Source: Marsupella aquatica (lineage: Eukaryota > Plantae > Marchantiophyta). Taken from it: a stretch of DNA of 64,000 nt. How positions within the stretch are numbered: position 1 is the stretch's first letter; each line of letters begins with the position of its first letter. Position numbers and translations under genes: made by a program. This document shows, in pieces, positions 3,491-39,461 of the stretch. The stretch is taken from positions 186,001 to 250,000 of the forward strand of contig OZ316893.1 of NCBI GenBank assembly GCA_973895155.1. The letters run 5' to 3'. Below the pieces are notes generated by a model. The model saw nothing but the letters and a program-made list of their open reading frames with translations, was not told the DNA's origin and did no database searches.

Positions 3491-6094
3491 CTGGCAAATG
3501 AGACCAATCTCCGGTACCGTTTGGATCAGGTGAGACCTGTATGCATCATCAATTCAATTACCGTAAAACTGAACCTAAAAACAACCACTGTAGACATGGC
3601 GTAACTGATGTGACTTTTTCAGTTTCCGGGGCTATATTGTCCACCCACCTCCTGCAAAGCAGAGAGGGAGGGGGAATCAGCAGCGCCCACGGAAATTGGA
3701 TACACGATCATGGCATGACTTCCCTATGCGGCCGAGGTTTACATTACCAATGTTTGTATGTATGGTCAGACACAGCTTTCTTTCAGGATAAACAAAGAAA
3801 ATTCAAATCCGCTCCGAGATTCAATAGTGTGCATCCGAGTGAGTATGGACCCTCCGTTCCCAGATGCAAAACTGAGTGTCAATTGCCCTAATGATGCAGG
3901 TATTGAATCGAAACACCCACGCCGCGCCACGCCACAACTCAACACAGGTGATGACGTAGGGATGTCGTGCGACTGTTGAATATCCAAAGGAGGGGAGTAC
4001 TCATCCGCGATGATAAATAATTCAACAGCCAGGTGCTACTACTGACGATTTAGAATTGGGGATTGGGTGGTATCTTCCAATATGCCATATCAGAAGTGTC
4101 GTGAAACTAATACACAACCAAGCGGTGCTCCATAGAAAGCAGTAATGGCCTGCAATAATCGCGTTCCCGCTCGAATTGTGTTGTTTTTGAAATCCTACAA
4201 GCACGAGCAGAGGATTCAACTTCGATATAATGACCTCGTTACATTAGTTCAGAACAAAATTTATTCCTCCCTCAACATTCATTTCCAATTTGCCTTCAAT
4301 AAAGTGACCGTTACATGTCAATGCTAATTACCAGTAAGCAAATTTATAGTGAAATTCTTTTACATCGCGTCGAATTCAGAATTCTGAACCAAAGAACCAG
4401 ATATGCAATTCCACACAAACAACTCATCGGGCCTATTGCAAAATTAAAATTGGAGAATGCTAAAATTAAGTTGCGTCTTCCCCCCTGCACAGTCCAAGAA
4501 ATATTCTATCCGAATGTCTAAACCCTGAAGCCGCGCTTTTCTCCTGCTAAAGAATCGACTGACAACAAGCCCGGAGGTTTCTTACTCTACACCACCACTA
4601 ATTGGTCTCATCTCGGAATTCATGTTGGTAAATCCTAATTTAAGAGTGGGGCAGGTATGAACAGGAAAAATAACACTAGGTAACCATAGTTAGGCTAACT
4701 TTAGTAGGAGACGTGGTTAGGTTAACTAGGATGCACACTATATGCCAAGCGCGTGGTGTTTGCTTGGATAAGTGGAACTTAGGCTCATTGTTATGATGCG
4801 GCCACTTGAGAGATGAGGAGAGCTTACACTGCAGAGACTTGGTATAGCAAACTGGCATAGAGTTCAGTAAAGCTCTCTTGTGTGTTCCCATGGATGTAGC
4901 CTCGAGGAGGTGATCAAAACATGTATGTCTTGTGTCTACTACTTGCGCGTTGGATGTGTCATGTGCTTACCATTGCGATAGTCATCTATGCTCAACAGTT
5001 TTGAGAATAGTTGATTATGCTTGAATGTGTGAGTGACTTTGAGATAATGCTTATGATCTTTTTGGTGTGTATTCAAGGAATATTTTTTGACTAGGGCCTA
5101 TTTAGTGGGAGATAGACTCAAGTGAGATCTTTTTCTAAGATTTGTCATGGTAACTACGATCAAGGTAAGGTTTGTATCATTGTGCATGTTTTTTATGACT
5201 AGAATTTGTGTTGATTTGTTTAATTTACTTGAGAAGGTACTTGATATTTTGTCCATCCAATTCTTGAAATGAGCAATTTTGTGTGAGTGAGTTACTAGAC
5301 AAATGTTGGGCTTCACTAAGAAACAACCCCGCTTTCATCGAGGATTCTCTCTTTTTCCCCATTCAATTAGTGTGATTGCTAAAAATGTTCTCTTATAAAG
5401 CTAAATCAAAGCATGCAGTCTATTCTATGCTTTAAAATCTAATTTTCACACACATGATAATATTTATCATAATATTGTTTATTTTAAAACAAATGATCAA
5501 AAAGGTTTAAATATAGCATTGTACCCGGGAACCCTCACTTCTTTTCTTCCTACCCATCACGCGCGAATGTAGAAGGATTTTTTTATTGGGTTTAGTGAAA
5601 AACGGGGTGAAATACTTTTAAATTTTTGTTCTAGAACATTAGGGTTATTTTAATCCAATTTTGAGAATCATAGGGTTTAGGGTAAAAAATTAAGTTAGGG
5701 GTAAAAAATTTCCTTAAAAAGAAACTTCAATGACTTAACTTTTAGGGTGTTTATTCCCCCAAAACTTCACGCTTGATATGGGACACCCCTTGGATTGAGG
5801 CCCCCGAGAATTTACCACAACACTTGACGCTTTTTATATGAATAATCATAGATTTCTTCAATTTCAGCAATGCTCTAAGCTTGGTAGGGGTAGTTGAGTA
5901 CATCTTTTATAATTTTGTTTCATACTGATATGGTTATCTAAGCACATTACATATTTAAGAAAGTGAAATTTGCCCTTTGTTGGATTCCAAAAATTAAGAA
6001 GTTAGTTGTTTGTACCTAACCATATTCACTTAATTTCATTATCAATCGTATACTATAATTATAACTGAAGGTCCACATCACATTATTCAAGCTA

Positions 6095-7462
6095 CACTCT
6101 TTACAGTATTTAGTCTCACACGCTCTAATTACTGTGAGGTTATATTTGAGGTAAGTGACGGTAATTAGGGTGTGTGACACTAATATGGTATGACACTAAT
6201 TGTGGTTACAAGTCAAATAGTGTCACATGTACACTTAAGTTAAAAAAATAGAATAGACTATAGTCAAAATTTGCTTATAAAAAAATGAAAAATGTGCACA
6301 ATATTTGATTACACTTTACAAAATTTACTACTGAGCAAACTTCAGAAACTTATAACTCTTTCCATATACTACTGAACATTGAGCAAACTTCAGACATTTA
6401 TAACTCTTTTCACATAATACAAAATTATAGTTTGAGGTACTCAACCACATTGAGCAAGCAAGATATGTTTGATTCACTTCTATCAATTATGAATAACATA
6501 TGTTGTCTCACATACGCTACAAACTGATATCCTGTTCACTCTCTTTCAACCTGTCCCCTGTGTCTCATCCTTGCAAGACGGCGTACAACCCCAAGAGAAG
6601 TGGGTTGAGCTGGCTCTTCACCTGGTTCACCAACTTCAGGAGCCACTTCAACAGTAGCATCAATATCAAGGCCAACTCGACTCCCTTCAAAATTCGCTCG
6701 ATACTTTGCTATGATATTTTGAAGCTCAGGTGTAAGTTGATCTTCAGACCATACACCAGTGACATTTAGAGACAAACCGGTCCTTATCATTGATTTTTGT
6801 GCATAAGACATGCCATGTCTGTCAACAGAATTGTTTACCTCAGCTACATAGTCCCTTGCCAATGTCAAAAACCACTGCTTGCCTGGATTTATCAATTTCC
6901 CAGATGTGCCTCGTGTCCCAGTCCCCATCCAGTGTCCCAGCAAGCAACATCTCTGCCTTCTTCTCTTCCCACCTCTTTGTCCAGGCATCCTTAATCTTTG
7001 AAATAACAAATGAATCACAGGGTTGGCAAAGGTAAGTTGAATTTGCTGATAGATACCTGATCTCTGTCAAAATTTCTTGCAAAGCTGCAACGGTACCTGC
7101 TGTCTGGTTGTGCCCATTGTAATTGTCCATCCATTGAATCTTGACTCTCCCTCGAATATCAGGCCTGCTGACTCTCCTTTCCCTGTAATACTTTTCCAGA
7201 CAAGCAGTGTTCACGCACACAGAGATGTCATTGAAAGTCTGGATAACTTTGGAGTGAGTCTAGTTTAGGGTTACCACCAATTATATATTGTTATCTCTAA
7301 TTATCAATATTTTTAAATATATATTAATTTTTTTTTCAAAATTGAAGGTGACGGTAAATAGTGTCAGTTGGCTGAAAATCAAGGGATACCCCTAATTAGT
7401 GTGTGTGACAGTAATTGTTAGTGACACTAATTGTTTCGTGAGACTAAATACTGTAAAGAGTG
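6095..7462 (-). mobile_element. pogo/Tc1-mariner superfamily TIR transposon, internally deleted (non-autonomous)
   Basis: Perfect 25-bp terminal inverted repeats CACTCTTTACAGTATTTAGTCTCAC (6095..6119 and 7438..7462), flanked by TA on both sides (6093-94, 7463-64); subterminal GTGAC/GACACTAATTG repeats; internal DDE_1 fragment. Confidence 0.9.
6536..7220 (-). pseudogene. DDE_1 (pogo/CENP-B-like) transposase C-terminal fragment, frameshifted
   Basis: 'IQWMDNYNGHNQ...IRYLSANSTYLCQPCDSFVISKIKDAW' matches the DDE_1 'LDN..H ... LP.N.T..LQP.D...F..LK..W' pattern; continues in the 6536..7018 frame; no N-terminal HTH. Confidence 0.8.
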
Positions 7463-7526
7463 TAGTTAAGGCAATACACTTTAATATACTATTTAACACC
7501 AACTATAAGTTCAAAATTAAATAAAC

Positions 7527-9779: not shown

Positions 9780-11530
9780 AAATGGATCGGATGGGATTTA
9801 CATCACATGGATGTCATAACCGCCGCCCTCAATGGGACACTAACTGACGAGATCTATATGCACCTATATTTCTTTCACTCAAATGGTGACCTTTTCATTC
9901 TTATGTTTTATGTCGATGACCTTCCGATTGATTGCTGGTAGTGATCCAGAGACTCACTTGAAAAATCCACTACAAGAATGACATGTCTTGACTACAGAAA
10001 CACGCACTGCTCCTTTTCATACGACTACATAATCATTGTCACGCAGTTGGCGAGCTTATATATATCTTCCTCACTCACACTAGACCAGACATGTCTTACG
10101 CAGTACCCATCATTGGGTACGATACACGAGCTCTCCTCAGAAACTCACTGGGATTCGGTTCAACATATTCTATGGTATCTACATGCAAACTTCCGACCAT
10201 GGCATCTCATTTCTTCGCTCTTTCAACAACCTCCCTTCAAGGACTTACCGATGCAGGCTTCCTTGGGTGCACTGAAACTCGACGCTTTCACGGTGCCTAT
10301 CTCCTCCGACTGGCGAATGGCCCTATATTTTGTACTGGTCTAGTAAATTACAATCAACTCTTTCCGATAGTACTACTGAACCTGAGTACAAAGCACTCTC
10401 GGAGGCCGCCAAAGAAGCAGTTCACATCCGTCGAATTTGCCAAAGAAGCAGTTCACATCTGTCGATTTCACATCTATCGACTTCTTGCTGAGATTGGTTC
10501 TACAACCACTCAGTCACCTATTCACTCGGATTTAGCAACACGCGTGCACCCCAACCACTGCCCGACATTCATCTTCATTGTCTAACCAGGGTTCAATCAA
10601 ATTGGCCAATCACCACTTCGACGGTAAACAAACACCACTTTATTAGGGAGTAAGAGGGGTGGAAACATCATTGTCCTACACATCAATACAAACAAAAACC
10701 CTGCCAATATCCTTACTGAGCCTCTAGATGATAATTTGAAAAACACCGATCATGCATGGGGCTTAAAAAAATCCATAGCTACTAAAACCTAGTTCAGTCC
10801 TCCTTAAGCATTACACCTTTCCTCATCAGGAAGAACTCTGCCTTTGCCAACGTCCGAAAACTCTGATGGCAATTCCCTGGATATCCGCTCACTTCATTGT
10901 TCGCCTCTGTCAAAGTCGTGTAAATTCCTGGCCTTCTTCCCACTGCAACTGCATAAAATCGACGACGGGACATTCCAGGCTCCTCCATCGCTTCACCAAA
11001 TCGCCATTGCTTCATCAGCGCTTCCATGTTTGCTTGAGGGGCACTTGGCCGCTGCACTACATCGCTCTTCGATGACAGTTGCAGTACATCGCTCATCGAT
11101 GACATCACCGGATGCAACAATTGCGGTGACCCCACCTCCGCAGCAACTTCCTCTCCCCGGATCTCTACCTTTTTTGGTCTATTCTCCTTCAGCTCGGCAC
11201 CTTGCTCCCGGATCCATTGCGCGAACCTACTGCAGCCGACAAACAGTGCACGGAGCAACTGCACCAACACTTTCACGAATCCACTTGCCAGCATCAACAA
11301 CGCTTCTTGAGTCGACATCTCCCACCTCGAACCTTCGGACAAATTTGATGTTGTGTTTGCCTTGAGGCCGAATCAAAGTAGACCGTTTGCTTCACTCACT
11401 TAGTCGAGAGGGGGTGTTGGAAATCAACTCGTAATAAGATGACTTATAACGAGGCCGGCCTCAACGGTCATCCAGTTTGACGCCTCCACTCCACTTTCTC
11501 CCCGGCCCCCACTGCTATCTGTCTGTCTGA
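9780..11530 (+). mobile_element. Ty1/copia remnant: RT and RNase H fragments, PPT and start of 3' LTR
   Basis: 'WDLHHMDVITAALNGTLTDEIYM', 'LMFYVDDL', 'LQGLTDAGF', 'STTEPEYKALSEAAKEAV'; purine tract GAGAGGGGG (11406..11414) followed directly by TGTTGG at 11415. Right boundary uncertain. Confidence 0.8.
10794..11342 (-). CDS. ORF with C-terminal Cauli_VI / RNase H1 hybrid-binding (HBD) domain, antisense inside the Copia remnant
   Basis: 'RRRFYAVAVGRRPGIYTTLTEANNEVSGYPGNCHQSFRTLAKAEFFL' fits the HBD/viroplasmin consensus FYAV..GR.PGIY..W.E...QV.GY....KSF.T..EA..FL; first ATG at ~11318. Confidence 0.75.
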   Translation of the reverse strand: MSEGSRWEMSTQEALLMLASGFVKVLVQLLRALFVGCSRFAQWIREQGAELKENRPKKVEIRGEEVAAEVGSPQLLHPVMSSMSDVLQLSSKSDVVQRPSAPQANMEALMKQWRFGEAMEEPGMSRRRFYAVAVGRRPGIYTTLTEANNEVSGYPGNCHQSFRTLAKAEFFLMRKGVMLKED

Positions 11531-12621
11531 GGTACCGTTGATGTTAGGTCTGTCTGCCCTACCGTCGATTCTCAGCTACTTGTAGGGGAGGCATGACGGA
11601 CACCTCATGTAGCAAGCACAACATCTGCTTCTACCAACAACATTGTGATGACAGGTAATGCACTGCTCGCGAGTGTCGTGCAGCATGCCCTCGCGTTGAA
11701 AGGCATTGAGATGACACACCTGAGGTGGGCATTGACTGCTTCATGTGGACATTGCACCTGGGTTCGAAGTATTCCTTGCCTTGCCTTCTGAAAGCTACTC
11801 CTACAAATGCTTCACACTGCACGTGATCAATTGTCATTACTGAGAATCAGTCATGCGGAACCCGCGACCCCCAGTGAGTGTGGTGGCTCGTACATCACAC
11901 AAGATTTTGTGACTGACGAGTTATTTTTGGGCATACGGTATTCCTTCGCAGCTGTAGTGACAAGAGCACTTTGTCATGGGACACATGTACCGTTTTTTGG
12001 TAGAGTGTAAGGAGGATGTTACTCCCAATTTTGTAAAGATGTTTGTAAATTTTGGCACTTGATGTGTTGTGTTGACTGATATTTGTAAACTTTGGTGCGA
12101 ATTTAATTTCCCTATCAAATGATGCAAAAAGCAATTAATTTCCTATTAAACGATGCAAGCAATTACCTAGCATGTTCTTGCTTGGTTAAGTTCTGTGTAT
12201 TGGATACGGCAGTGAGATGATTGACTGTACTAAGATTATTACTCGCACTCTCCATTGACTGGGAATGTGACGGATGCCACAAGTTCGCAAACGGCACTAC
12301 TTTGGTTTGTTTGCTTTCGTTCCTTGGAAAGTCTACAAAAGTTCCAACCTCGACAAAAGTCTTCAAACAAGACCGATCGAGTCTGATTGAAGTCGGCAAT
12401 TAGCTGCAACTCAGGCGACTCGGTTATCACATCTGGTTCTGCAAACTCTGCTCGTAGCAGGGTCAGAACTCGGGAGGGTTTCTGGCCTGTGATCTATGCA
12501 GAATGAAGGAGGGATTGGGATAAGCTCTTAGGGCAAAGGCATTGCTTGCTCTGTTTTGTGGACACGGAGAAGTCCAACTCAATATAGTGGAGGTCTTCCC
12601 TCGCTGCTGCGATGAGGTGTA

Positions 12622-13914
12622 TTGCTGAAATTTGACAAAGAAATAGTGCGAGCTGCATTCCATCTGCCCAATGGGCAATTTGGACATTTTCGAAATTCAT
12701 GGGCGTCCGAGCAACTGGATGCCATGATTATTGTGCCTCAGAACCACACAAACCCTTGGAGTTTGGATACCCTATCGGATGTGTTCAGGCGTTGGCAGGA
12801 GCTTGTGAAGGTTGTAAACAAGCTACTTCTTGGGAAAACAAAGCCCACCCAGGTAACCGGGAAGGACATGTGGGTGTACTGGGCTTCCTGGTGGAGTACA
12901 ATCCCGGAAGAGGTTCGGGCCCAGGATGTGGAATGTCCAACTTTCAAGCCAGACTAGGCTCATTTTGTGTGGGACTGCTTGAAGGGTGAGATAGTGGCGT
13001 TGAGGAAGCAGTTGTCAGATGATAAGCTTCCGAGAATGAAACGTTATCCCTGTTACTGTGGCACGGCTGTAACGCGATTGCTCCTTCACAGTGGGTATTC
13101 CATGAGGGATCTACTTCAAAAACCCAGGAGTGCAGACGAAAGTGAGACGCGCAGTAGGCAGAGTGCTAGTGAAGCAGAGATGCGGGGTCAGAGCGTCAGA
13201 GAAGAGTATAGTATTTTCCCAATGGACGTCTGCTTTGAACCTGTTACAGCCACACCTGGAGAGAGCTGGCATCCAGTACAGGAGGTTTGATGGGTCCTTA
13301 GGGCCACTGGGGTGCCGCGGTGATGGAGGAGTTCAGGACGCGCCCGGAGGTGCGTACGTAGGGCAAGTACACCACCATACTTCAGGGTTTAGGGTCGTTC
13401 AAATTAACTATCGAACCAACTCAATTGACCGGCCTGTTTCTTACATGCTTCTTTGCCATGCAGGTGAGTGTCATTCTGATGTCCTTGCTTTCCGGAGGTG
13501 TTGTGCTGAACATCGAATACGCCAATCATGTTTTTTTCCTGGACTCTTGGTGGAATCCAGCAATGGAAGACCAGGCCGTTGGTCGAGCACATCGAATAGG
13601 ACAGAAGAAAAAAGTGTACGTGACACGAATCGTTCTAGAGGACTCGGTCGAGGAGTCGGTTTTGGAGCTGCAGGTACGTACCGGTTTCTTAAGAAGCTTT
13701 CTTCAACAATATGTTAGCTTGTATACATAGTTTGCCGAAACCCTAAACCATTCAAACTCTCTACCTTATTGTCCCACTCTTTTGACTGCAGGATATGAAG
13801 CGTAACATGGCTCAACAGCTCTACGAAGGAGGTGGGGCCGCATTCAGACCTAGTACACAATCTGACGGCGGTGTTTCGAGAGATATTGAGTACATATTTC
13901 GCCAGTCTCGCTAA
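12622..13914 (+). pseudogene. PMD/Transposase_32-like domain fused to a RAD5/RAD16-type SNF2 helicase C-terminal domain (spliced, degenerate)
   Basis: 12622..13130 aligns by eye with 28650..29157 (RAAF.LP.G, NP.SL, LLGK.KP.Q, PD(W), YCGTA.T.LLLH.G.S). It is followed by 'KSIVFSQWTSALNLL..RRFDGSL' and 'VILMSLLSGGVVLNIEYANHVFFLDSWWNPAMEDQAVGRAHRIGQKKKVYV'. GT-AG introns at ~13350..13463 and 13674..13791; last exon 'DMKRNMAQQLY...DIEYIFRQSR*' ends at 13914. TAG at 12955 and frameshifts near 13190 and 13310. Confidence 0.85.
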
Positions 13915-15349
13915 GCACCGACGGGCTTTGGAGTTAGTTGGCCGTGCACTCGCAATATCACTTGAACTGTAAAAGCTGCTGCTTGCACAATCAGGCCACA
14001 GGTTAATCCCTGGCTGTGTTGGTCTTATCGATGGTTCTTTGCTTCCCTTACCTAAACGTCCTTTTGCCCATGGGGAATGCTACTGTGGGGAAAGAGTAGA
14101 TACTCAGTCAATGTGCAGGTGGTCTGTGATAATAGCGGCGGACAATGAAATGAAATGTTTGCCTTTCCCATTTTCAAGGAATGCCTGGCTTAAGGAAATG
14201 ACCTCTTTGGAAGTTCTGCACAGATGTAAACAGTAAAATCTGGTGGGTGACACCGGGTACCAGGCTTTACCTCATGTAGTTTGTGCATTCAAGAGAGCAG
14301 ACATGGTACATGACAAAGAGGATTTCAGCACTTGGTGTGGCAGAGTGCCGTGGTACATGACAAAGAGGATTCCTCCCCTGAATTCATCTGTCCACGGTTA
14401 GATTAGATATTCAGCGACTGGAGACATCCAGACAATTGACAATTCGGAAGAAGTAAGATGTGCTTAGACATCCTTGCCTCTCTACTCTCGCACTTTGACA
14501 CGGAAACTTAGGACTGCTTTGATGCAGATGTTCCGAGAGGGAAGATTGAATTTGAGACGCCCTAGCAGTAGTAGAGCCAAGGCTAGAAAGAGCTACGGTG
14601 GCATTTTTAGATTGCAGTAAGGAGAGGAGTAAGAGGACGGCCCCCTTCTGTTTTGGCTTCTTTCGGGTGGTTCTGTTCCAGTGTGCTATAAAGCCCATTT
14701 CAATTAATCTAAAAAAAATTCAATTAATTGAAAATAATACCTCATGGCCTTTTGGTATACATGCCCCCATTTGCTTGTAGACGGGCTACCGTAGTATCCT
14801 TGAATTCTGCCTTGTTGGGAGTCTGTTTCCACGCTTTGCTGTCCGTATACTGCGCGACTCTCGTGTAGAGCCTTAAATAAATCTTTAGTGTGAAAGCGAT
14901 ATGAAAACATAATTTTACAATGAAGCCGGAACACGGCACGTGATTGGACACGGATGACTTGTTCCCGGTGCACACTTGGCCACGCGTTTGGACTAACACA
15001 ATATAGACGCATCCGTTCCCAACTTCTATGACCTCTGTGTCCTCTGTATCCTGTATACACTCTGTACCCTCGGATTTCAACTGCAAAACCCAGGTTTTCT
15101 TATGATGCAAGTTTGGCTATTCGGTTAAATCAGCTAATTCCTACATGGAAGCTGCCCCCCTGTCTCGGTGGCAAACCCAGAGCTGAGTTGCTTGCTACCC
15201 CGCTTTGAACCCTGTGGTTCTGATTCTTCTACGTGGTAGCTGAAGGAAGGCAAATACGATACTTCTACACGGTGGTCCACAGAACAAATCCAAGCCACAC
15301 AATGTACTATGATTCCCAAAACTCGAACTGTCGAAGTCTACATCAATAT

Positions 15350-18300
15350 TCAGACAATCGATTTCCTAAATAGGCTCACAACAATTCTTCTCCTAGCAGA
15401 ATCCATGTCCTGAGCCGTGAAATCAAAAACCATGTCTAAACTACGGTACTCAGCAAATTTCATGACAAATACGCCACAGTTGTAGCTGTCGGTTTGGCGA
15501 GGAATGTCCTTGCGTGCGTGCCTGGGCCACTCACGAGCCCAAAGGTGCTTCTGATTTTTGGTTCTCAATTTGTCGTCCATGTATTTCGCCAGGTTTTTCA
15601 GAACATCCGGCTCTTCACCATGAAGGGAATCCAGATACTCTAGGCATTTCTCGTTCTTGTCAATGACGACCCACGCCCAATGGCTTCCGCCATCAATGTG
15701 AATAGGGACAAAAATACGATCACAATCAAGCAAGAAATACGTCAATTTCGAGGTCCATGACTCCACCGCCGCATAATTATAACCATTCTTTGTGAGTACC
15801 AAGTAGAACCAGGTATCAAAGAAATGGCACTTGAAGACTCTCATCCGTGATCTGTCTTCCATCGCTTTGATGAGACCGAAATACGCGTTCATAACCTCGG
15901 AAGTTATCCATTCTCCTGGAGAGAGGCATCTCATTTCTTTCCGGGTTATGACGCAACCATTAGCGGTGCTGACTAAAACTGCGTCTTGATCCAAGTCAGG
16001 GCTCAGGCAGAAGTCTATGACGCCGTGGTCGTCCACCTGGTCCGGTGGAGGGTTTTCTTTTGGTGACTCATTGACAGTAGTAATGGATTTAGTTTTTTGG
16101 ACCCGGGCGCCTCTTTGAATCGCATGCTCGACGATAGTGCTATCTGATACTCCTCCTGGATGATGAACATGAGCCGCGACGACGGACTTTTCACCCCGAA
16201 CTGGGGTGCTATTATTATTATCATTGGAAAGATGATAACGCGGACGATCGATATCGCGGACGATCGATACTTGCGAGTCTCTTAACAAGGACTGTCCGGA
16301 TAATAGCCCCGCCGGCACTACTGCCCCGTCAAACGACTGAGGCACGTGGTGGTCATGACCGGCTTGCACCGCACACGAGAGCGAAGGCAGAACAGCTGTG
16401 TCTCCTTGGAGACCCTTGTCCACAGCGCTGTCCATTCGCATACTCGCAGGATAGTGACCACTGGCTGCCCTGGCATTCAAATCTTGTGTGGAGCAGCCCG
16501 GTGGTCTCCACAATGACTTTGCGAAGCTCGACACCTTGTCCAGAGACTTCATGTTCTTGGCATACGCTGTGAGGTCCATGACGTCCTCCCTGGCGGAGCA
16601 GAATGAGAAGCACTCGCGTTCCAAGAGTAGTGCATGCTTCAGAACCTGCCCCCTTGTAAAGAAATCGAGCACTATTTCCTCTTTTTTCGAGAAAACTTCT
16701 ATTATAGCTCGGATTATTCGCCCGGGCTTGATATTGGTAGTGAAGGAGCGGCCGCTGGGCGATCTGAATGGAACCCGATTTTCCAGCCTAACTTTCATCG
16801 CCGCTTGTTTGATGCTAGCCATCTCCCCATTGGGACGGTCCGTCGATTGTTCCTTGCTTGCCTTCCGGAGCTCCACTCGGTCTCCGTCTTCGAAGCTGAA
16901 ATGGCCGCTGAAATTCTTGAAATGCGCTTCCCAATCCGGTTCCCTGTCTTGGGAAACGCCGAGAAAAATCACAGTTTCCACCACACCTCTCATGTGCTGC
17001 CGCGGGAGAAGCTCAAAGGCATTCTTGAAATAGGTGCCATATTCAAGATGGGCATTATAGTTATCCGGGAGACATCGCGCCGCCTCAATGATCCATGCTA
17101 GAAGTATTCCCGGATGCACAAAAAAGGCGAGGGTCAGTGACTCGTTGGCCGGAACATTGACGACAATTTTCAGAAAATTCAATATTTCTGATTGTGTCCA
17201 CGTATTGCCCCTGGTGTGTGTCAAGTCCACGATCGCAAGAGATGCCACAATACTCTCACTACAGCTAGAGCAATCGAACGGTGGCTCGGCCGAAGCGAGA
17301 AAATTTCCAGTGTAGAAAATTTTGTAGGGATCCATCCTCGACCGAATATGTCCGCCAAACTTCTTCAGATACAGATTTCGTAGCCTATTTTTCAAAGCCT
17401 CCGGCATGTCGGCCCTCTCGGACACCTTCACCAGGCTCTTGAAATATCCGGCATCGACCAATGCGCAACAGCGATCGAGTTCGTCATTCGTAAAATCAAA
17501 CGTCCGAACGACGTCCGCCCAGAGAGCACCGGCTGAAAACAATTGGTCATAGTTTGCGCGATAGAATCGCAGGATTGCGCCTTTCAGTTTGTCCGTATAC
17601 TTTGCCTTTGCTGCCAGGTCGGACATGGTCGGCAGATCAGTTAAAGCGTGTTTCTTTCTAATCAACAGCACATCACCCGAAAGGACTTTCATTAAGATGT
17701 CGGTGATGTCGGATTCCTGCGCACCCTCAAACACTCGGAACGTACTTCCGGTTAACCTCTTTGCTTCCTTTGGTTTGTAGGTAACCTCTCCAATGTTGTC
17801 GGGCAAATGTCCTTTCAACCAACTGTTGCAAACCGCTCTCCACAGTTTGTACAGGTCTTCCGAGGCGAACAGGATCTAGTTATACTCGCTGATGGTACTC
17901 ACCTGCAGCATGAGTTTTGCAAGCGCCTCGTACTCCTGATCATTATCAATCATAAATATGTGAATCGAAGAATTACACACGCTGCGTACACTACATACCC
18001 TGCATACCCATTCAATAAAACACTTAAAAATGTAGTCATGATTTTCTGCCCACCCATCATATACATAAACACAAATCCTCCATATACTACCTGGAATTCG
18101 GTGGACTTCCGCCCAGAAGGAAGTGGACGAGCTGGACGACCCATTTCGCTGTACTGCAACCGGGCGTGCTCCACCTGATCGATGAATGGAGATGAAAACC
18201 TGTGTGCTTCGGCTTGCATGTTGTTTGCATGGGAAATCTCCACCAGAACTTGGGCAGGGATCGAACCCTTCAGGATTCGAGCCCGTCGATATTTCAGTAA

Positions 18301-20043
18301 CTTGGCTGTTTGCATCAACGCCGGTTGGGTTTGCGCACTCCTAATTATCCTCTTTGCAGCCATTGCCAAGTGTTGTCCACTGATTGCGAAATATTTTAAT
18401 TCGGACAACTTGTCGGAATCAGAATCGGAAACAGATAGGTCGATGAGTTTGTAAGCCCCGTCGATGCCAATGCTGTAGGCAACCAGATCTGCAGGTAGTG
18501 GCTCCTGACCAGCGTTGGTAATCATGAGTTCGACGAGGCGATTGACATGATTGTCATTCAGTAAACGCTCGTTCATCTTGGCTGGCGGAGTGTGGATATT
18601 GTCCACTGGAACCGCGCAAAGCGTAGATAGTCCAAAGGAATACCAACACTCGTACAACTGCAAAGTCCTCTCTACATTTTCGAGATGAGAACGATCGACC
18701 AACAATGTCGAACTATCATCCACATTCAGCTCGACGGTGTTGATCGACACCCTTTTCTTCTTCGAGACCCTGCTCGTGTGCCCTTCCTCTGTCTTTGTTT
18801 TCGCTCCACATGCTTGTTCAATGTTCTCCCCTTTGCTTCTTTTCCCCGTTTTTTCTGCCATCGCCTGAGGTTTCTGTTTTCCCGATGCCTCCCCTTTTTG
18901 TGCTTCCTTTCCTTCTTCCCTGGCTGCTGCTGCTCTCTCTCTCGTGACGACCTTTCTTTCGGCTGCTTTCCTAGACGTCTCATTCTCCGGCCCGGTCTTC
19001 GTTTGGGGTTCCTTGTCTTCGCTCCTTTCAACTTGCTGCCTCCCTCGCGTGCTTGGCACCGTCAACTGTTTATCGTCCCTATTTCTCTTTTTGCGATTTA
19101 TGAACTGATCCGGCCGTAATACCACTTCAAGCATTTCCTCCGGCACACTGCATGTACCTTCCACAACCTCATTACCCTCGAATCTGCCTGAATGAGATGG
19201 ATGACAAGGTTCCAGCTTCCTCGTTTCTGGCCCTGATTCAGACAAACGTCCAGCTTGACGAAGAACTGGATGCTTACGGATCCAAGTTTTTACAGAATCG
19301 CGACTAAATTCGTTTGTGAAAATTACAGCTTTGTCGATAGTTATCCTCTCGCGAAGCTCATCGTCACCTATGGTACGCGCCATGATGTGTGCCACCTCTC
19401 TGGTTCGGGACAGGAAAAGTCCATGCCTGTGATTCAATAAGAAGTTTACCCTTCCAAGCCCGTACAGTATATCATCACAACATATGTCACGATCCTCATC
19501 CATGAACGACTCACAAGTGGGATCAAAGAATCCGTGCGATGTGATGTTCATCCGGACATCGTACGGTTCGAGGCAATGTGCACAGCAGAATCTTCCAGCA
19601 AGTGCGACAAATTGCTTGAAACTCAAACCTTCAAGATCCTCCACCGTTATGATGAGCTGCCTCTCTCCCGGCCGCCACTTAGGATTGGCAGTTACACAGC
19701 AGTCCGCGATAGCACCAAAAGTGACCCAGCATTTCTGCTCCTTCTCGGTTGCTATGCCTCGAAGGACACACCGCCACACGCCCGTCACTTGCATCAATTC
19801 AAAAGACCATGATGGAACCGATTCAGAGATACGAGCATATCCCTTCACTTTAGGTGTCTGTAGCGCCAGATGGCTCAAATCGTAGAGAAGCGGTTCAACT
19901 CCTACGATCGAGCAAGAAGCGAAGTATTTAGATTTTAGCACCACAAGAACACGGACGAAGGTGTTTTGACACGGCAAGCCATCTAGAAAAATTGACGACT
20001 CTAAAGGATAGCAGAGATGCAAACAAACCCAAAAATGAGCCAT
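15350..20043 (-). pseudogene. Multidomain gene: ParB/DGQH-like domain, beta-class N6/N4 DNA methyltransferase-like domain and Ulp1 (peptidase C48) SUMO protease; one in-frame stop
   Basis: Exon 20043..18091 contains 'VPVDNIHTP..NERLLNDNHVNRLVELM...YFAISGQH'. A putative phase-0 intron 18090..17936 (CAG|GTAG...ATCAG|GAG) joins it in frame to the 822-aa ORF through one TAG (17876..17878). The MTase-like motifs are 'SLAIVDLTH' then 'KPGRIIRAIIEVFSKKEEIVLDFFTRGQVLKHALLLER'. Ulp1: 'WITSEVMNAY', 'PIHIDGGSHW', 'YLDSL', 'PRQTDSYNCGVFV'. Ulp1 call is strong; ParB and MTase calls are moderate. Confidence 0.7.
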
Positions 20044-23000
20044 TTCAAACCCTAAATCCTAAAGCCATTCCCATTGCCGACGATCGCCACAATGGAATAC
20101 AGTGTGCAAATATGACATAGACAACCCTAATGGGTGAGAGCTGCCTCCGCGGGCCGGAAGAAAGGCTGACAACCCTAAAACATCGCGCGTTGTATATCAT
20201 CTCATTTGCATCGCCGCCCATGGTTCTCTGCAAAAGAAGTCGCATATCCTACCAGAGAGTCGCGTAGGGTAAATGACAGATGGGGGTTTAAGACCCTACC
20301 TTCCAGTTGGATGAAAGCTTCGGTTGCCAATGCCAGAGCATCCGACACCGGCAGAGTTGTCGTCATTCATTCGCGTGATCTCCCTATTCACTGGCGAGGG
20401 TGCAAAGAGAGCACAGACACGGGCGAAAGTACGCTACGGTAGGGAGCAAGCCACAGGAAATCCACCGGAGGATGCTGTTTAAGTAGTGTTGTTTCTTACT
20501 CTCGGGGTGGGCGAACCGTAAAGTGTGGCCGATGGTTAGGTCTTTCGTGCAGCAGAAGCTGGGATGCTCCTCATGACTGCTACCAGACTGGCAATCCGCA
20601 ACCCTGCAGGCTCCATCCATCTTGGATCGCCATCGTACTCTCAATGCCCTCTTAATGCCGAGCCTCGCTTCCCGTCCGCTTCACGTATGATCTCTCATGA
20701 ATGACGGCCGAGGATAAGTTACTCCTCAGGTGCCACCTCCCAATTTTCAAGATCCAAGTACCATCAGTACTGTTCAAGGCTCCTACTTACTGTCCCTGTC
20801 ACTACCTAAAGCAGCGAGCCCAAAGTAAGTACCACGAAGCGGCAAGTAACTCAGCATGAAAAGCCGAGGCACGAGCCATCAACAGGGCATCAGCCATCAT
20901 CATTAATTTCAAGGTTTAAGAGCCTGTGGGATCTGATAGTTCGCTCATGTCGTATTAAGAACCTCATGGATCTCATTGACAGCCAATCTGAAGTTGATGT
21001 GCCTTCTCCAAGTGGTCACCATTTTTTAAAACATAGAATACCTTCTTATAACGTGCTGTAAAAAAGAAGTAACCCAATAAAAAGAAAGACATAACACCAA
21101 AAGTGAACAGAACATAGCCTAAACCCTATGGGACTGTAATATGAATGATAAGCTTCCCCCCCCCCCGCCCACATATCTTACACCACTTGGGGGCCGGGGG
21201 GCGGGGGGGGAGGGGGTGGCGGGGTATAGGTTGGTGGAGCAAGCGCATTCTCTCCTCCTCATTCTTCACTGATGCTCTCATTCACTATGTTTCTTAATCG
21301 GTGGTATCTCGTTAGTGTAGCGTGTGATCGAGTGTTACACATTTGCTGCCTAGCCTGAGTTTAATTGGAGCGGGCATGAATGGCCATAAAATCATGTCCA
21401 AAATCATCGCGCATAAAATCATTTTCATTCCATCTCGACCACCCTAAAAGGTTGAAAATAGCGGGTGCAAAGAATGTAATTACTTCTCAACAGTTATAAG
21501 AAAAAATAATCCCCAATGGGATTCTAATGGGTATAATCCTTATACCGAGCTCATCTGAGACCGCAATATGTGACTCATTTTGGCTCAAGTGACTTCATTG
21601 TGACTCAACGTGACGTGAGCCGGGCTGTGACCCTTGGTGTTTCAAAAGTTGAGACCAAAAAACAAAAGTCACTATTGATACTGGACATTGCGACTTGCTT
21701 CAATGATACCCATTTGTGACTGATCTGTGACTCCATTATGGAGTCCAGCCTTGTTGATACGTGACTGCAGTGTGACTTTAATTAGTCACAGGGTAAGAAT
21801 TTAGGGAAGTTGTAACCATGACCGATCCAGTAATGGATTATAGCAATTGTGTAAGAGTTCATAAGGAGAGATAGTCAATTCAAGAGCACTCCACATTACA
21901 ATACATAGAAACCCTAAATCATCACTTTAGAAATATATAACATATTAAATACAAGAAATAAACAGAGCATGAATGACATCCACATGAAACAAAGCATGAT
22001 ATAAGGAGGTCCTACATAAAACATTCATAAGAATTCAACAGAATCACAATATTGCTGAAAGATGATGATCAATTCAATTACAATGGAACAGTTTACAATG
22101 TCGTCAACGTAATTCAGAGAAAACAGGAACTTGTAAACTGAAAATTGTTTGAAATGATTGAAAGCAAATGCATGTTACTATCAATTATCAAGCATGATAA
22201 TGCATTGCTTCTTGAATTCTAAAATCTACAAAACATGACAGTGGTGGACCTTGCCACCCAGCACCCTCACCAATCCCAGCACTCATGCCTCCACAGAATA
22301 CCTCGAGCAAGCATCCTAGGGCCCCTTGCACCACCAGCGGCCCCTCCCATACAAAGCCGCACTTGCTCTCCTACACGACCGCTACTCAACGGTCCTCACT
22401 GTCTGCACAAGCAAACAAGCACCTCAGTAAGTAACCCTTCAAGATCTAGAACTCGCCAAGTCTAGCATCCTAACTCAAGCTCAACAGAAATTGGTAAATA
22501 GGTCAGCGATAGGTCCTCCTGATGCCATAAGCGAGAACCAGAACCCACACCCACTGTTCGTCCAGAACAGCTCCTTCCTTGGGCGTAGCCAGGGTTCCCC
22601 CTCGTACCTATCCATCACCAACTGACAGCCCTGACCCCAGGACATGCTCATGGCCCAAATAGTGTACCTTGTCCTAAAGCTTGTCCTAAAAGCTTGTCTA
22701 GCAACCAACTCCCGATTCGCCTCACTAATGGCCTAGGGACCGAGTACTCTTGGAACTCAACCTCCACACCTACTTGGCCTTGCCTCCCCAACACAAGCTC
22801 CCTTGGGAGACTGAACACGGCTTGGCTGCTGTTCGGCAGGATTTGGTAAGCGGGCGAGTTAACACCAGCAAACCCCAAGAACCCATGGTGCCCCCAGACC
22901 CAGCTGAGCTCAGGAGGGCTACAGCTTTCCAACGCACCAAAGAAGTACTCCAAGAAGTTGTCATTTTGTGGTCGAGGCATTTGGTCTGCATACAATCAAG

Positions 23001-23310
23001 ATACTCAAGGCCCTAACCCTTCAATAACAAAATTTTTAATCAGAACGGAAAAAGATGTTCAATTCCTCTTTTTTTCTAAAATTCTCAAGCATTTTTTAAA
23101 CACAAATCGAGATGTTTGTTTCAGTCAGCATAGAAGGAATAGGTTGTGTGTACTTCTTACTTAGGTACGTTAGGCGCGATATTAATTAGGAACTTATTAC
23201 GTTATGGGACCCAAAAATGCCTCCAATAGTTTTTCTTCACAAGGTACTGTGCAGATCATTTGTATCGTGCCCAGATTTATATTGTGGTTTGACACACCTA
23301 GTAGCGCGCC

Positions 23311-23715
23311 GTGATGAGAATTATGCGGGTAGCTATGTGTTTCATGCCGGGTGGAGGTTGTATCACCTGCAATTCGACAACTGCATGTGGTGTTGCATCG
23401 TCTACTACCGAGGCCGAGTACACGCCTGCCTGTGAGGTAACTAAGGCACTGATCTGGCTACGGAGATTGGAGAGCCGTGGTGTTTGTATGGCAGTCAAAG
23501 TGCATTGCACTTGGCAAAGACACACCGTGTTCCACGCCAGGACAAAGCATGTTCACATTTGTTACAACTTCACTTCATCCGTGATGCGATTGACAAATTT
23601 GCGTCGACGAGGAAAACACAGAGGAGTTTAGAGCTACGGTAGCTGGTGTGTGGATATGATTAATCTTAGATATTTTACATCACTCATTGTGCAAACTGGA
23701 CTGAGAGTGGAGATG
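23311..23715 (+). mobile_element. Ty1/copia RNase H remnant
   Basis: 'GVASSTTEAEYTPACEVTKALIWLRRL...VFHARTKHVHICYNF' matches Copia RNase H motifs (S.TEAEY, FH.RTKH); purine-rich PPT-like tract at ~23699..23715. Confidence 0.75.
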
Positions 23716-28560: not shown

Positions 28561-30200
28561 AATCCTGCCTTCTAACTTTGATTCCGATGACTGAAGTTTA
28601 CATTTAATAGGTTGAGGTTGGGTTTCCCTTCTTGTAGTACCCTCGTTGCCAACATTTGGCCCGGATATAAGGCTTTCCCATGAAAATCCCCAATGTAGCA
28701 GCAACTGTGTAATAGCAGTCCCACAATAAGCGGGGAATGCCTTTGACTCACGAACATTCCTCATACCCTGAAGGTGTTTCTTGAATTTATTTATTTCCAA
28801 AGCCAATTCATCATAAACTAAGTCACTCCAATCTGGTAGCAATTTTGGCATAGGGCCTGCTAGTCTTTTTCCCTTCGGCAAAGTACCACACAAATACCAG
28901 TAAAAGTAACTCAATTGTTTTGCTGATAACTGTGAAGGCTTCTCCTTACCTAGCAGAATTTCCTGCACCACTCTAATTGCCCCAGACCATCTATCATACG
29001 GAGCTCTCAAAAGCTTTAAGCTATAGGGATTCCCTCTTATTCGTGGACGAACAAACAATTCATTGAATTCAGGACAGTGCATTCTCTGCCTGTACTTGGC
29101 GAATGTACCATACGGCAGCTTGAATGCCGCACGTAACACATTTTGTGTGATTTTCAATGAACGCCCTCAAAATTCACTGGATTTTGATGCATAATCAAAT
29201 CCCAACACAAACTCCTTCACCCCACATACGGCTGTTATGTTGTAATCAATCCCAAAAGTTTGTTGCAGACCAAGGTTGCAAATCATTGATGATCGAGTTT
29301 GTCACGTCGTAGGCTTCGGTTTTAACTCAGACTTCAGCTTAGACGGGCACATCCCTCGTAAATCTGAGGGTTCGGGCAGGAAGGGAAGCACGTAATGCAC
29401 CTTATTCTCGTAAACTAGCGCTAAGTGCGCATACTGCTAAATACAGACACCTCCTAGGTATGGTTTGTGTTCCGCCGCCGGAACGTACCTTAGTCGATAG
29501 CAGGATCGACCCCGGCTTAAGGGCTTCTAAGCCTTCGTGCTGTCTGCCTTCGATCCGGATTCGATGATACAGGTCCTCAACCCGTGCTCGCAACCACTTA
29601 CCCGCAGGCTGCACCCTGTGCACGTCTCGGGTAGTGCGTTCGGCCCGGCGCTGCCACCCATATACGAGAAACCCACACACATATGCGCACACATGCATAC
29701 AATCTCGATTTACACGAAGGAAAAATGATGGGAAAGGATTTTTACTACAAAGGGAACATATGCGTACACTTAGTTGACACGACAGCCCTGGAATGCACAG
29801 GTTCAAGGCCAAGGGTGCACACTACAACGGAGCCCGGCTCCGCACTCGCTCGGCAAGCTTAGTCCTACCCCCTCCCCTTGGTACTCTGTCATTCCCAGAG
29901 GTCGGGACTCCCCGCATGTCCCGCGGATGTCCGACTCTGAAACTAAAAACCCCCCCCCCGCCTCTACCGAGGGGTGCACTAAATACTAAGAGCCGAGGAA
30001 CGGGGTGTCCTCCCGCCGAAGATTCGCTGACCAAGGTCCTAACTAAGCTGACAGTCAGGCCGGAAAACGGCTGTGTCTTATTAGAAGATCCTAATCTACG
30101 CAGGCTGGACAGCAGGGCAGCGCTGCCGTACCTAAGGCAGGTGCCTGTCCCAAGAGCCTGACCAAGCCAATCCTAATCCTAATCTATTCCTACTCCGCCG

Positions 30201-32849
30201 CTAATGCCTGGCACGCTTGCCAGAGCCGCCCGAATGGGAACGGCCATCCTGCTGTCTTCGAAGCCTGTCATTGTCCGCTTTGAGGAGCTGGACCTGGTCC
30301 AACAGAGATTCGTTCTCTCGCCTCGCCGCGTCCGTCTCCTCTGCTGCCTCCTGACATGCCTCCTCCAGCTGCTGGGCGTCGCTCGCCAGTTTACTCGCCA
30401 GCTGGTCCTGCTTCTCGGCCTCGATTTGGAGCCGCGCCATCTCGGCCTGCAGTGTGGCTATCTCTGTCGCGTCCCGCTGGGCTCGCTCCTCGGCCTCCTC
30501 CAGGTCTTTCTGCCAGGTGACAGCTTGTTTCTTCAAACTGTCAATCTGGTTCCGGAGTCGTGTAATCTCGGCCTCGTTCCCAGCTTTGGCCTGTTCGGCT
30601 AGGGCGGTAAGAGCGTACGCCTTTGCTAACAACTCATCGGCGGCTGCAACCTTGGGTCGTAGTTGCAGAAGCTCAGCCTCTTGAGCCGCCACTTCGTTCT
30701 TTAGGTACACGGACTCCACCCGGTACCGCTCTATCCTCTGAAGGGCCTCCGACTGGGCCCGCCCTGCCTTTACGGCGGCAACCAACTCCTGATTGAAGAA
30801 ACAGGCTACCTTCCGAGCCATGAACTCCCCGGTATCCCGGGCAATTTGATGAGAGAAATCTCCCAGAAGCGCGTTCAGAAACGTACCCTGTACGAAGAGT
30901 TCCGGGTGGTCCAAGTTATGCCTGTCCGGATTTGGGCACGGGCAGACATCAACACGCGCAGGGGCCGGGGCAGTGACGTCCAGCCCTGGGGACATAACGT
31001 TGGAAGGGGCCGGAGTATCCTCCTGCAGTGATGTCCGGTTCTCCGGAATTGCCACCGGCGGGTCCTTGGGAGACCCGGGTTCGGGTAAGACCTCTGCCGT
31101 ACCAACTTCTGTACTTAGCCCGGCTAGTTGGGTCGCATCAACGGTTGCGACGACCGACCCCTCCGGCGCCTCCTCGGTTACGATTACAGCTATTTGTGGA
31201 GGTGGGGTGGGTGAAGCTGGCGTGTCCACTGGACTTCGGGCCTCGGGTTGGGGTCGTCTCTCCAATGCCGGAAAAACCCACCTAGCTGGGACCAGCTTTG
31301 TAACGTTGATGCGGGGAAGGGTTTGTCGATCAAACCGGGCATACCACTCAAGAATGATTTCGATGTGGCTAGCGAAATACGCCTTCCCGCCAATGTACAA
31401 CGTCTTCCTTCGCCGCTCCATCTCTTCATGGAATTTCTTAGCGAAGTACGACGCCCACTTCCTAGGTCGATAGTTCTCGACCTGGATGACCTGGGCGGCG
31501 GAGATCTCCCCCCGGGGTTCCATCAAGTGGAGAGCGTACCTCTGGAACTCCAGCCGCTCAGCTATCTTGGGCATGAGGCAGGTCCTCATCACGAACCCGT
31601 TGTCTACTGATCCCTCTGAGGGAAAACTTGAAGATTGGTACTTGGCCCCCTTGCCCCCGGGAGCCCGTGATTCGACTCGATGGTCACCTTCGGGTAACCC
31701 GAAGATCATCTTGAGCCGTTCTTCTGTGAGGGACATATTCCTTCCCCGCAGCCGAGTCTGTTGACGTACGTCGTCATAATTCTTGACGAATTCTGTCATG
31801 TCCTCCCCGTAGTACCTGCAATTATTCCAGGGGAGAGAGGCGAGGTGCTCAAATCCCTGAGTCTTCAGGTACACCGCATGCTTGGGATGGAGGATGTTGC
31901 TGTGAACGTTTTCCCCCATGCAATGCATCGTTACCTTGGCTACGGCTACCGTGGCCAACGGTAACCCGGATGCACTGGCGGATTCCTTTCTCTTCTTTCC
32001 CCGTGACTGACTCGGGGAAGGTGATACTTCCCCATCCTCCCGATCGGGCCTGGGGAGTGCCACTGCGGTTGGTAACGGGCCCGGGGCGGCCACGGTCACC
32101 ATGTTGTCTGCTGGGGCCGCTCCTGGGGTCAGAGCAGGGGTTGGGGACGGTATAGTGTCGGCCCCCCGAGCGCTTGTGCCTCTGGGCCGCCTGGTCAAGG
32201 GTGGGGTAGCCTCGTCGTCATCGCTAAGATCTACAGCGTTGATGACGGAGCGTACCTGTGCTGGCTGGGTGATAGGTGGTGGGGTTTGGCTAGGCTGCGG
32301 CTGAGGCTGAAGCTGAAGCTGAGGTTGCATGGGCACGGGTACGGGTACGGGTACGGGTACGGGTCCGGCTGAGTTGGTCATGTTGGTTGATGGCCGAGTT
32401 CCCATGAAGCTCCGTAGGTGCTGGTAGAAGTTCTCCGAAGCGAGTGCGGACGCCCTTGTCGAACGGTTGGTACTGGACTCGCCATTAATGACTGCCCAAA
32501 CCTGGGCAGGGATGTGGTCGAAGTGATGTCGCTGCAGGTCGATTGTACCCGGGATATTGAAGACCTCGTCCGGAAGCCGAAGCAATGCTTCCCAGAACCC
32601 GATATATTTGTCTCCATCAAAGAAGTACCCAGATACCTCAGCTGGTCGGTAAAGCTCGCTCTGAGACGGGTAGTCAAAGTTAAGGACGTAGTGGTGTCGT
32701 CCTGCTAGGCAGATGGCTCTCTCGTATTCGCGTTCGATCTCGTATCGGCGCGGGTTGGCGTGTTTCAATGAATCGGCCAAGTGCCTTCCGGTAGATAGGA
32801 ACTGCGTCCAGAATCGAATGGCCGAGCTGGAGAGGATCGTGTGCGACAT
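30201..32849 (-). CDS. LTR-encoded 882-aa protein: N-terminal globular module, Pro/Gln-rich linker with NLS-like RGKKRK, PMD/Transposase_32-like domain, C-terminal coiled coil
   Basis: Uninterrupted ATG-to-stop ORF wholly inside the LTR; 'GFEHLASLPW...MTEFVKNYD...LRGRNMSLTEERLKMIFGLPEG...KWASYFAKKFHEEM...AYFASHIEIIL'; heptads over the last ~180 aa; ends GKRARH. Confidence 0.85.
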   Translation of the reverse strand: MSHTILSSSAIRFWTQFLSTGRHLADSLKHANPRRYEIEREYERAICLAGRHHYVLNFDYPSQSELYRPAEVSGYFFDGDKYIGFWEALLRLPDEVFNIPGTIDLQRHHFDHIPAQVWAVINGESSTNRSTRASALASENFYQHLRSFMGTRPSTNMTNSAGPVPVPVPVPVPMQPQLQLQPQPQPSQTPPPITQPAQVRSVINAVDLSDDDEATPPLTRRPRGTSARGADTIPSPTPALTPGAAPADNMVTVAAPGPLPTAVALPRPDREDGEVSPSPSQSRGKKRKESASASGLPLATVAVAKVTMHCMGENVHSNILHPKHAVYLKTQGFEHLASLPWNNCRYYGEDMTEFVKNYDDVRQQTRLRGRNMSLTEERLKMIFGLPEGDHRVESRAPGGKGAKYQSSSFPSEGSVDNGFVMRTCLMPKIAERLEFQRYALHLMEPRGEISAAQVIQVENYRPRKWASYFAKKFHEEMERRRKTLYIGGKAYFASHIEIILEWYARFDRQTLPRINVTKLVPARWVFPALERRPQPEARSPVDTPASPTPPPQIAVIVTEEAPEGSVVATVDATQLAGLSTEVGTAEVLPEPGSPKDPPVAIPENRTSLQEDTPAPSNVMSPGLDVTAPAPARVDVCPCPNPDRHNLDHPELFVQGTFLNALLGDFSHQIARDTGEFMARKVACFFNQELVAAVKAGRAQSEALQRIERYRVESVYLKNEVAAQEAELLQLRPKVAAADELLAKAYALTALAEQAKAGNEAEITRLRNQIDSLKKQAVTWQKDLEEAEERAQRDATEIATLQAEMARLQIEAEKQDQLASKLASDAQQLEEACQEAAEETDAARRENESLLDQVQLLKADNDRLRRQQDGRSHSGGSGKRARH

Positions 32850-32950
32850 TCAGAGGAGATAGTAGTGGCGATCTAAAGAGAACGAGAGAGCTGGGGTCGA
32901 AGCTGGCGCGCGGACTGATGGACTGGTGCACTACAAAGGGTTGGCTCCCC

Positions 32951-32957
32951 TTTTATA
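32951..32957 (-). promoter_or_regulatory. TATA box of the LTR promoter (TATAAAA)
   Basis: Minus-strand GTATAAAAGGGG ~100 nt upstream of the LTR-ORF ATG; conserved in the 5' LTR (~43107..43113) and in the related fragment (~51022..51028). Confidence 0.65.
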
Positions 32958-33282
32958 CTTTGAGGGCTTGTCGATCCCCGACGTCTCCTCGACGCCCATA
33001 GGTTGAACCGCTCACGCTTGTGGTGTACCGGCCACTCCGCCGGTCTGAGTCAGCGTGCGTCAGTGGCCGCTTCCTTAAGTTCGTTATACGGACCCGAGGG
33101 AGGGGCCCCTCCATGCTCATAACCCGGGTGTGCGAATAGCGACCCGCCGCCAGCCCGAACCTGAAGTCCCCCTTATTGCCTAATGATGTCCTACCCCTAA
33201 TGATTACCTAAATACTGTCGTTATGCTAATAATAGCGGCCTAAGACCCACCTAACGCGCGTGCCGAGCGCAGTTAGACTGAA

Positions 33283-39200: not shown

Positions 39201-39338
39201 AGATCCCGGGGGTATGTTCATACGTCGGGATGATTGCGAGTCCTCCGAGCCCGACGAGTCGGAGCTTGTTGTGGTTGCACTTTCTCGTTCGCTGGTCAAT
39301 CTCCTCAAGTAAGCTGCTTGAGAACCAGTGACGGGCAT
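33283..39338 (-). pseudogene. gag-pol polyprotein (Gag with three Zn knuckles, protease, RT, RNase H, integrase), inactivated
   Basis: Knuckles CSKCFQSGHVVQEC, CYNCEKPGHFAREC and CQVCKTEAHSTANC; protease VLVDGG; RT 'QDYRKLN', 'MPFGLCNAP', 'FIDDF'; RH 'YVDVS', 'NYSPTDRE'; INT HHCC, 'WGIDYIGP', 'SDRG', 'WLGPF'. Broken by a 62-bp duplication (~37244..37367) and stops at 35758 and 35317, with pol segments all in one frame. Integrase reads into the 3' LTR. Confidence 0.95.
33316..33330 (-). other. Candidate polypurine tract (AAGCAGGGAG)
   Basis: Short purine-rich run on the minus strand immediately before the 3' LTR; imperfect. Confidence 0.45.
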
Positions 39339-39430
39339 TTACTCATATAAATGCAATGGTTAGTACTACGTCCTGATGTATCCTGCCTAGGTGAATACGC
39401 ACATGTCTCCCCTCTACGATATGTAGAGTG

Positions 39431-39449: not shown

Positions 39450-39461
39450 AAACAAAGGCTA

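Follow-up and report, generated by a model that had tools for sequence, protein, structure and literature searches.

A minus-strand gene combining a predicted ParB-like domain, a beta-class amino-methyltransferase-like domain and a Ulp1/SENP-type SUMO protease domain was analysed in a 64,000-nucleotide stretch of Marsupella aquatica DNA (contig OZ316893.1, positions 186,001 to 250,000; this whole stretch is referred to as the window, and coordinates are counted from its first letter). Nuclear DNA from a land plant makes up the window, which contains an intronless PPR gene (described below) and parts of long terminal repeat (LTR) retroelements. The gene lies in two minus-strand open frames, 20058-17953 and 17875-15350. 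Exon 1 (18091..20043; 651 codons counted from the first ATG, the true start being uncertain) matched no Pfam family, and consists of an N-terminal portion of about 280 residues without assigned domain, a charged low-complexity linker and the ParB-like domain (18200..18690). It is followed by a predicted phase-0 GT-AG intron of 155 nt (17936..18090), with a GC content of 35% versus 49% in both exons. Exon 2 contains a conserved, unnamed helical domain (17341..17935), matched by most of the 70 homologues described below, the methyltransferase-like domain (16560..17340), which has no catalytic motif IV, a variable linker (15970..16500) and the Ulp1 domain with the final stop (15350..15950). All the motifs quoted in a first-pass annotation of this DNA were present on the minus strand: AVPVDNI (18615-18595), MNERLLNDNHVNRL (from 18576) and YFAISGQH (18393-18370) in exon 1, and SLAIVDLTH (17242-17216), KPGRIIRAIIEVFS (16729-16688), VLDFFTRGQV (16672-16643) and the Ulp1 His, Asp, Gln and Cys motifs (15703-15467) in exon 2. 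Intact versions of the gene would encode one protein of about 1,500 residues; none of 10 start variants of this protein was present in the protein collection by exact look-up.

The exon junction was compared with contigs from four public runs (two studies), none of which is on record as RNA. A paralogue contig of run X1, about 86% identical to the window (105 differences over 17162-17940 and 48 over 18088-18407), matches both exon flanks, but its 145 letters between 17940 and 18088, where the window has the intron, are unrelated. Among the homologous proteins, P0022, P0060 and P0005 run in a single frame from the ParB-like region (whole, or its end) across the junction into the helical domain, and thereby prove the fusion independently; several further homologues start exactly at the junction. 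The two open frames are thus one gene across the intron, as the first-pass annotation had supposed.

The three-part structure claimed in that annotation stands as well, but the window copy is not intact: an in-frame TAG, which had been missed, occurs at 17876..17878, 19 codons into exon 2 after splicing. The family residue at this position is Trp, found in 25 of the 33 homologues covering the column. Position 17877 reads TGG in all three X1 contigs, one of which differs from the window at 2 of 187 letters, and runs X2 and X3 show both TGG and TAG. An assembly error is ruled out by the presence of the TAG in these two other runs. Also discarded was a second intron of 27 nt (GTGAGT..TAG, 17902-17876), by which the stop would be spliced out, given that paralogues read TGG and carry coding-type changes inside it. 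Of the 17 differences listed for the high-depth paralogue contig around the junction, 13 affect the third base of a codon (p 3e-4) and 12 leave the residue unchanged. Purifying selection thus acts on the frame in the family, and the window copy is a nonsense allele from which normal splicing cannot yield the methyltransferase-like or Ulp1 parts. The window copy is a nonsense-broken pseudogene of a multicopy plant gene.

The family was defined by a phmmer search with the exon-2 residues against 1.84 billion representative proteins, which returned 71 proteins at E<=0.001 (best 5e-52, 29-32% identity over about 440 residues). One of them, P0025, was a repeat-protein false match and was removed, leaving 70 real homologues, 19-38% identical over long stretches. 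Word-indexed homologue searches gave no relative, nor did pattern scans of metagenomes (121 and 118 pattern matches) or of GTDB and viral contigs. Given this lack of pattern matches to a relative among GTDB and viral contigs, the prokaryotic origin lies far back and is evident from homology only; the first-pass proposal of a prokaryote-derived module holds for the ancestry of the methyltransferase-like part and not for any close prokaryotic or viral relative. Depth in the runs differs sharply between copies, the paralogue reaching 1024 versus 55-70 for the window locus in X1, and 3780 versus 165-233 in X2, which hints at a recently amplified paralogue subfamily, depth not being a copy number. 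In the literature consulted, mostly non-subscription, no description of this architecture was found, and the supplement of PMC4738411 may list the family; the protein family is real, conserved and apparently undescribed.

By homology, the central domain of exon 2 is of beta-class amino-methyltransferase ancestry. The window domain itself matched Pfam N6_N4_Mtase (PF01555) below the cut-off (E 2e-4 to 4e-3), and 16 of 45 homologues scanned matched it, 6 at or above the cut-off. The signal expected by the first-pass annotation over 16560..17330, weak in the window, became clear with a family profile of 34 sequences, whose only matches in the whole PDB were M.RsrI (E 4.7e-7) and M.MboIIA (E 0.042). 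Alignment of the family profile with 122 phage ParB-methyltransferases in hhalign gave 94.8% over 62 columns (score 58, whereas none of 40 column shuffles exceeded 17). The C-terminal half, with the motif X-I-II block, shows homology beyond chance; its hidden Markov model (HMM) test was seed-biased, and the PDB profile test was not. When the KP...VLDFF...R-C block of the window was used in tblastn, the matches were weak. Of 10 phage records, which form three independent groups, 8 had the match inside an annotated DNA methylase and two were unannotated; annotated DNA methylases were also hit in 9 of the 20 plasmid records listed, of 22. The whole methyltransferase part and the ParB part gave nothing meaningful against phages and plasmids. 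As assigned, the motifs would follow the beta-class order proposed in the first-pass annotation, with a putative motif IV at 17242-17216, KP at 16729, motif I at 16672-16643 and motif II at 16618-16595. The KP-to-motif-I spacing is 21 in the window and in all seven references having all motifs (eight examined), and the spacing across motif IV, the target recognition domain and motif I is 187, compared with 154-342 in references. Language-model look-alikes in the Atlas scored 0.96-0.94 and carry no common Pfam family, an N6_N4_Mtase cluster being found at 0.88.

The catalytic (D/N/S)PP(Y/F/W) and DxFxGxG motifs are absent from the window and from 70 of 70 homologues, so that their loss is a family trait and not a peculiarity of the window copy. 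The motif IV column has Asp in all 33 rows, followed by F/L-S/T/A-R. Motif I reads DFFSGG in the family and is one residue short (F in 25 of 27 and G in 23 of 23 rows), the K of KP is kept in 24 of 27 homologue rows together with a conserved R-E-C, and the motif II column is acidic in none of 22 rows, with S, A, V, C or T instead; P0046 was omitted from the motif X-II counts on account of its misaligned tail. The domain is probably a pseudo-enzyme that has lost methyl transfer, which agrees with the degenerate and probably dead methyltransferase of the first-pass annotation. The intact paralogues suggested there as a check, with their catalytic motifs, are not found among the homologues, and a family-wide loss makes it unlikely that seeking them, or N4-methylcytosine (4mC) and N6-methyladenine (6mA), would pay.

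A ParB fold of the N-domain is likely on the basis of its motifs and its resemblance to other clusters. In the Atlas, eukaryotic clusters resemble it at 0.95, and in one of them 31% of the members carry DUF3723; a look-alike at 0.91 has ParB_N on 35% of cluster members. The first motif is where a phage ParB HMM, as expected, aligns, with 2 of 500 shuffles reaching at least the same score, and the region is conserved in P0022 and P0060. In the G-(H/E)-x-R box the Arg is absent, ISG(Q/A)H being followed by L or S in the three members covering the box. Single-sequence AlphaFold models were unusable for both the N-domain (predicted local distance difference test, pLDDT, 34) and the methyltransferase-like part (pLDDT 38), and Foldseek on one such model of the N-domain came back empty.

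The Ulp1 part matched Pfam Peptidase_C48 with E 5.4e-34 (118 bits, cut-off 20.7) and SENP2 with E 1.9e-30, with the oxyanion Gln aligned as well as the His, Asp and Cys triad, which had been read from the sequence in the first pass. SENP2 and SENP1 are its best PDB matches, and cleavage of SUMO rather than NEDD8 or ubiquitin is its predicted activity. The Ulp1 and methyltransferase-like parts adjoin in the paralogue too, with a diverged linker, since 15961 and 16484 are joined on an X1 contig of depth 1023. In X1 and X2 contigs 15955 was also seen joined to 20077, with sides of only 37 letters, suggesting a deletion derivative or another, core-less Ulp1 gene. Ulp1 was found in none of 45 homologues by Pfam and in none of 70 by phmmer, and 16 homologues extend more than 100 residues beyond motif II. 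The tail of P0046 is a NIF/FCP1-like (phosphatase) domain, and at least four homologues have a common unnamed tail: the C-termini of P0002, P0026, P0042 and P0051 (by eye also P0003 and P0011) share a small domain, with a G-P-x-K-G-like motif and a terminal EYGS(F/L), in the position taken by Ulp1 in the window gene. The tail of the family is modular, and Ulp1 is a subfamily-specific tail.

Downstream of the gene and convergent with it, a broken neighbour (12616..13800, plus strand) consists of an unnamed domain with an internal TAG, followed by C-terminal exons of a RAD5-like SNF2 helicase (E 2.4e-18). A 4665-bp X1 contig of depth 1308 matches its exons, and this neighbour may belong to the same element as the window gene. 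The unnamed domain occurs twice in the window, at 12616-13200 (plus) and 28600-29166 (minus), with 35% identity; one copy leads into the SNF2 exons, and a 189-bp coiled-coil tandem array follows the other. Next to the neighbour, a frameshifted remnant (13850..14400, plus strand) shows GCVGLIDGS, YSVNVQVVCD and LVGDTGY in translation, candidate motifs of a PIF/Harbinger DDE transposase. Directly upstream of the gene, 21220-23600 is a very high-depth repeat in all four runs, with a summed depth of up to 10^5-10^6 at 22.4-22.8 kb. Other features of the window are a small decayed terminal inverted repeat (TIR) transposon at 6092-7465, with perfect 28-nt inverted repeats around a frameshifted open reading frame (ORF) and a weak DDE_1 match (E 0.014); an ORF at 10797-11372 (minus) that has an RNase H1 N-terminal (Cauli_VI) domain at its end (E 9e-15); a young Gypsy-type element at 29300-43300, whose two long repeats are almost identical, lie some 10.16 kb from each other and each contain an ORF of 800-880 codons, and a third, diverged copy of the repeat near 50.4-51.2 kb; and an intronless PPR-E-E+-DYW gene at 57530-61447 (minus), whose eight 303-bp repeats of 87-95% identity point to a recent internal expansion.

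Our preferred reading, held with slightly better than even confidence, is that the gene is an accessory gene of a DNA transposon encoding a DNA-tethered deSUMOylase on a dead methyltransferase scaffold. The ParB-like domain and the catalytically dead, bacterial-type methyltransferase domain would grip DNA, and the protein would bring its predicted active SUMO protease to the bound DNA, where it might strip SUMO from factors of silencing or repair that sit on the chromatin of the element itself. In other members of the family, the part delivered would be a different tail, such as the FCP1-like domain of P0046 or the unnamed domain. We infer residence in a transposon from the multicopy depth contrast and the transposon-rich surroundings. 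SUMO is described as having a part in silencing, and the Ulp1 tail of the VANC/KAONASHI (KIU) proteins offers a precedent for capture by mobile elements, with a chromatin role proposed for it (PMC13317346). These proteins, from VANDAL elements, which are Mutator-like elements (MULEs) without TIRs, are likewise plant mobile-element accessory proteins with a captured C-terminal Ulp1, present in some family members only, as in the family studied here. The KIU capture is dated to flowering plants (PMC13317346). The core of the window gene differs, being composed of ParB-like, helical and pseudo-methyltransferase domains; no MULE transposase was matched among 94 ORFs scanned, and no repeated target motif was found in 10.5-21.3 kb. 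The best reading is that the window family works like VANC/KIU and is unrelated to it.

A number of results weigh against this proposal. No match to DDE_Tnp_4 or another transposase HMM was obtained for the remnant at 13850..14400, and its linkage to the gene was not seen in other copies. No convincing terminal inverted repeats or 3-bp target duplication were found in 7.5-29.5 kb, and no repeated palindrome, parS-like array or k-mer that could serve as a binding site in 10.5-21.3 kb. The high-depth subfamily was seen in two runs of one study only. The ParB-like assignment of the first-pass annotation, for which motifs and Atlas likeness speak, found no match in Pfam, scored 18.9 against ParB in hhalign (control maximum 22.6) and gave no PDB match with a family profile of the region, so that it is suggestive overall. 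Likewise, no profile signal came from the N-terminal half of the methyltransferase-like domain, whose score was reached by 124 of 500 shuffles, and the assignment of motif IV therefore rests on position and pattern. Motif I of the window, DFFTRG, departs from DFFSGG by an Arg seen in none of 23 homologues, and the invariant motif IV Asp with DFFSGG could mean a retained, different chemistry. Finally, the SUMO protease FUG1 is described as able to promote silencing in Arabidopsis.

The alternative that fares best, which we nevertheless hold to be unlikely, is that the family consists of domesticated host chromatin factors expanded by duplication, with the window copy as a pseudogene and no current link to transposons. 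Purifying selection, an intron position common to distant homologues and the fact that no element ends were found agree with it, but the many diverged subfamilies with swapped tails and the broken chimeric neighbour fit mobile cargo better, and so do a near-identical, high-depth subfamily confined to one organism and a segregating nonsense allele. Somewhat less probable still is an active enzyme with a rewired site, in which the Asp and DFFSGG would bind S-adenosylmethionine or a different nucleotide cofactor; its substrate would be DNA, RNA or protein, and the ParB-like domain would load or activate it. The residues kept in motifs IV and I, KP and R-E-C despite 19-38% identity, and the automatic methyltransferase name on the top Atlas look-alike cluster, would suit such an enzyme. 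Against it stand the loss of PP(Y/F) in every homologue, the shortened motif I and the non-acidic motif II: in N4CMT and CcrM, motif IV contacts the target amine, and the PP(Y/F), motif I and motif II residues are described as binding the target base or the cofactor (PMC10406627), and replacing SPPY in rotifer N4CMT is reported to abolish activity (PMC8885841). That Ulp1 is a recent passenger, functionally unconnected to the core, is improbable: its absence from the homologues, also from those with long C-terminal extensions, and the poorly conserved linker would fit, but no stop interrupts the 841 codons that follow the TAG as far as the end of Ulp1, the triad is complete, and in the ~86%-identical paralogue both parts still lie on a single contig, with a drifted linker whose frame was not seen.

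The DNA-tethered deSUMOylase that we favour can be compared with several known systems. M.RsrI, M.MboIIA and phage ParB-methyltransferases have the same motif X-I-II block and KP-to-motif-I spacing, with motif IV N-terminal to motif I; the window family differs from these beta-class enzymes in the absence of (D/N/S)PP(Y/F), the shortened motif I, the extra helical domain, the spliceosomal intron and the eukaryotic effector tail. A ParB-like domain likewise lies upstream in the methyltransferases of ParB-terminase-locus phages and of clade 6 of Iyer et al. in haptophytes, and methyltransferases derived from ParB loci are described in eukaryotes (PMC4738411). The phage or prokaryotic ParB-methyltransferase architecture invoked in the first-pass annotation is not reproduced here: phage proteins join the two parts directly, whereas in the window family a conserved helical domain of about 200 residues separates them. 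That annotation had also pointed to the 4mC enzymes of Marchantia and rotifers, and the comparison holds for the fold class but not for the catalytic motif, nor probably for activity. MpDN4MT1a/b and N4CMT are prokaryotic-type beta-class domains in eukaryotes, as here (10.1101/2021.02.12.428880; PMC8885841), and N4CMT is fused to a chromatin domain (PMC8885841); by their descriptions, they keep TSPPY or SPPY and are active host enzymes, which sets them apart. The DUF3723 proteins of fungal Starship transposons, look-alikes of the N-domain in the Atlas, are described as mobile cargo of little-known function (10.1101/2021.12.13.472469); in contrast to them, the gene lies in a plant host, had no match to PF12520 (DUF3723) at the sequence level, and no captain tyrosine recombinase was seen. 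The amino-methyltransferases of DIRS1 retrotransposons provide a precedent for a family-wide dead domain on mobile DNA, but they are PCIF1-related, not beta class, and part of a retroelement polyprotein (PMC4738411).

A broader version of the proposal, which we put forward tentatively and with more doubt than confidence, is that these genes represent an undescribed, widespread plant transposon family, in which a prokaryote-derived ParB-like clamp and a repurposed beta-class methyltransferase would form a DNA-targeting chassis for interchangeable eraser tails (SUMO protease, CTD-phosphatase-like domain or the unnamed domain), with an anti-silencing system of separate origin from VANC. The invariant Asp/DFFSGG pocket may then serve to recognise a modified base or to hold a cofactor. 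In plants, only a small number of counter-silencing proteins encoded by transposons are known, and what the Ulp1 domains repeatedly captured by plant transposons do is described as unresolved (PMC13317346). If the proposal is true, a second chassis with swappable tails, assembled from bacterial components of DNA modification and partition, would be a case of convergence, and would allow a direct test of whether SUMO removal helps elements to escape silencing. A match to a bacterial-type methyltransferase in a plant genome need not imply the presence of 4mC or 6mA.

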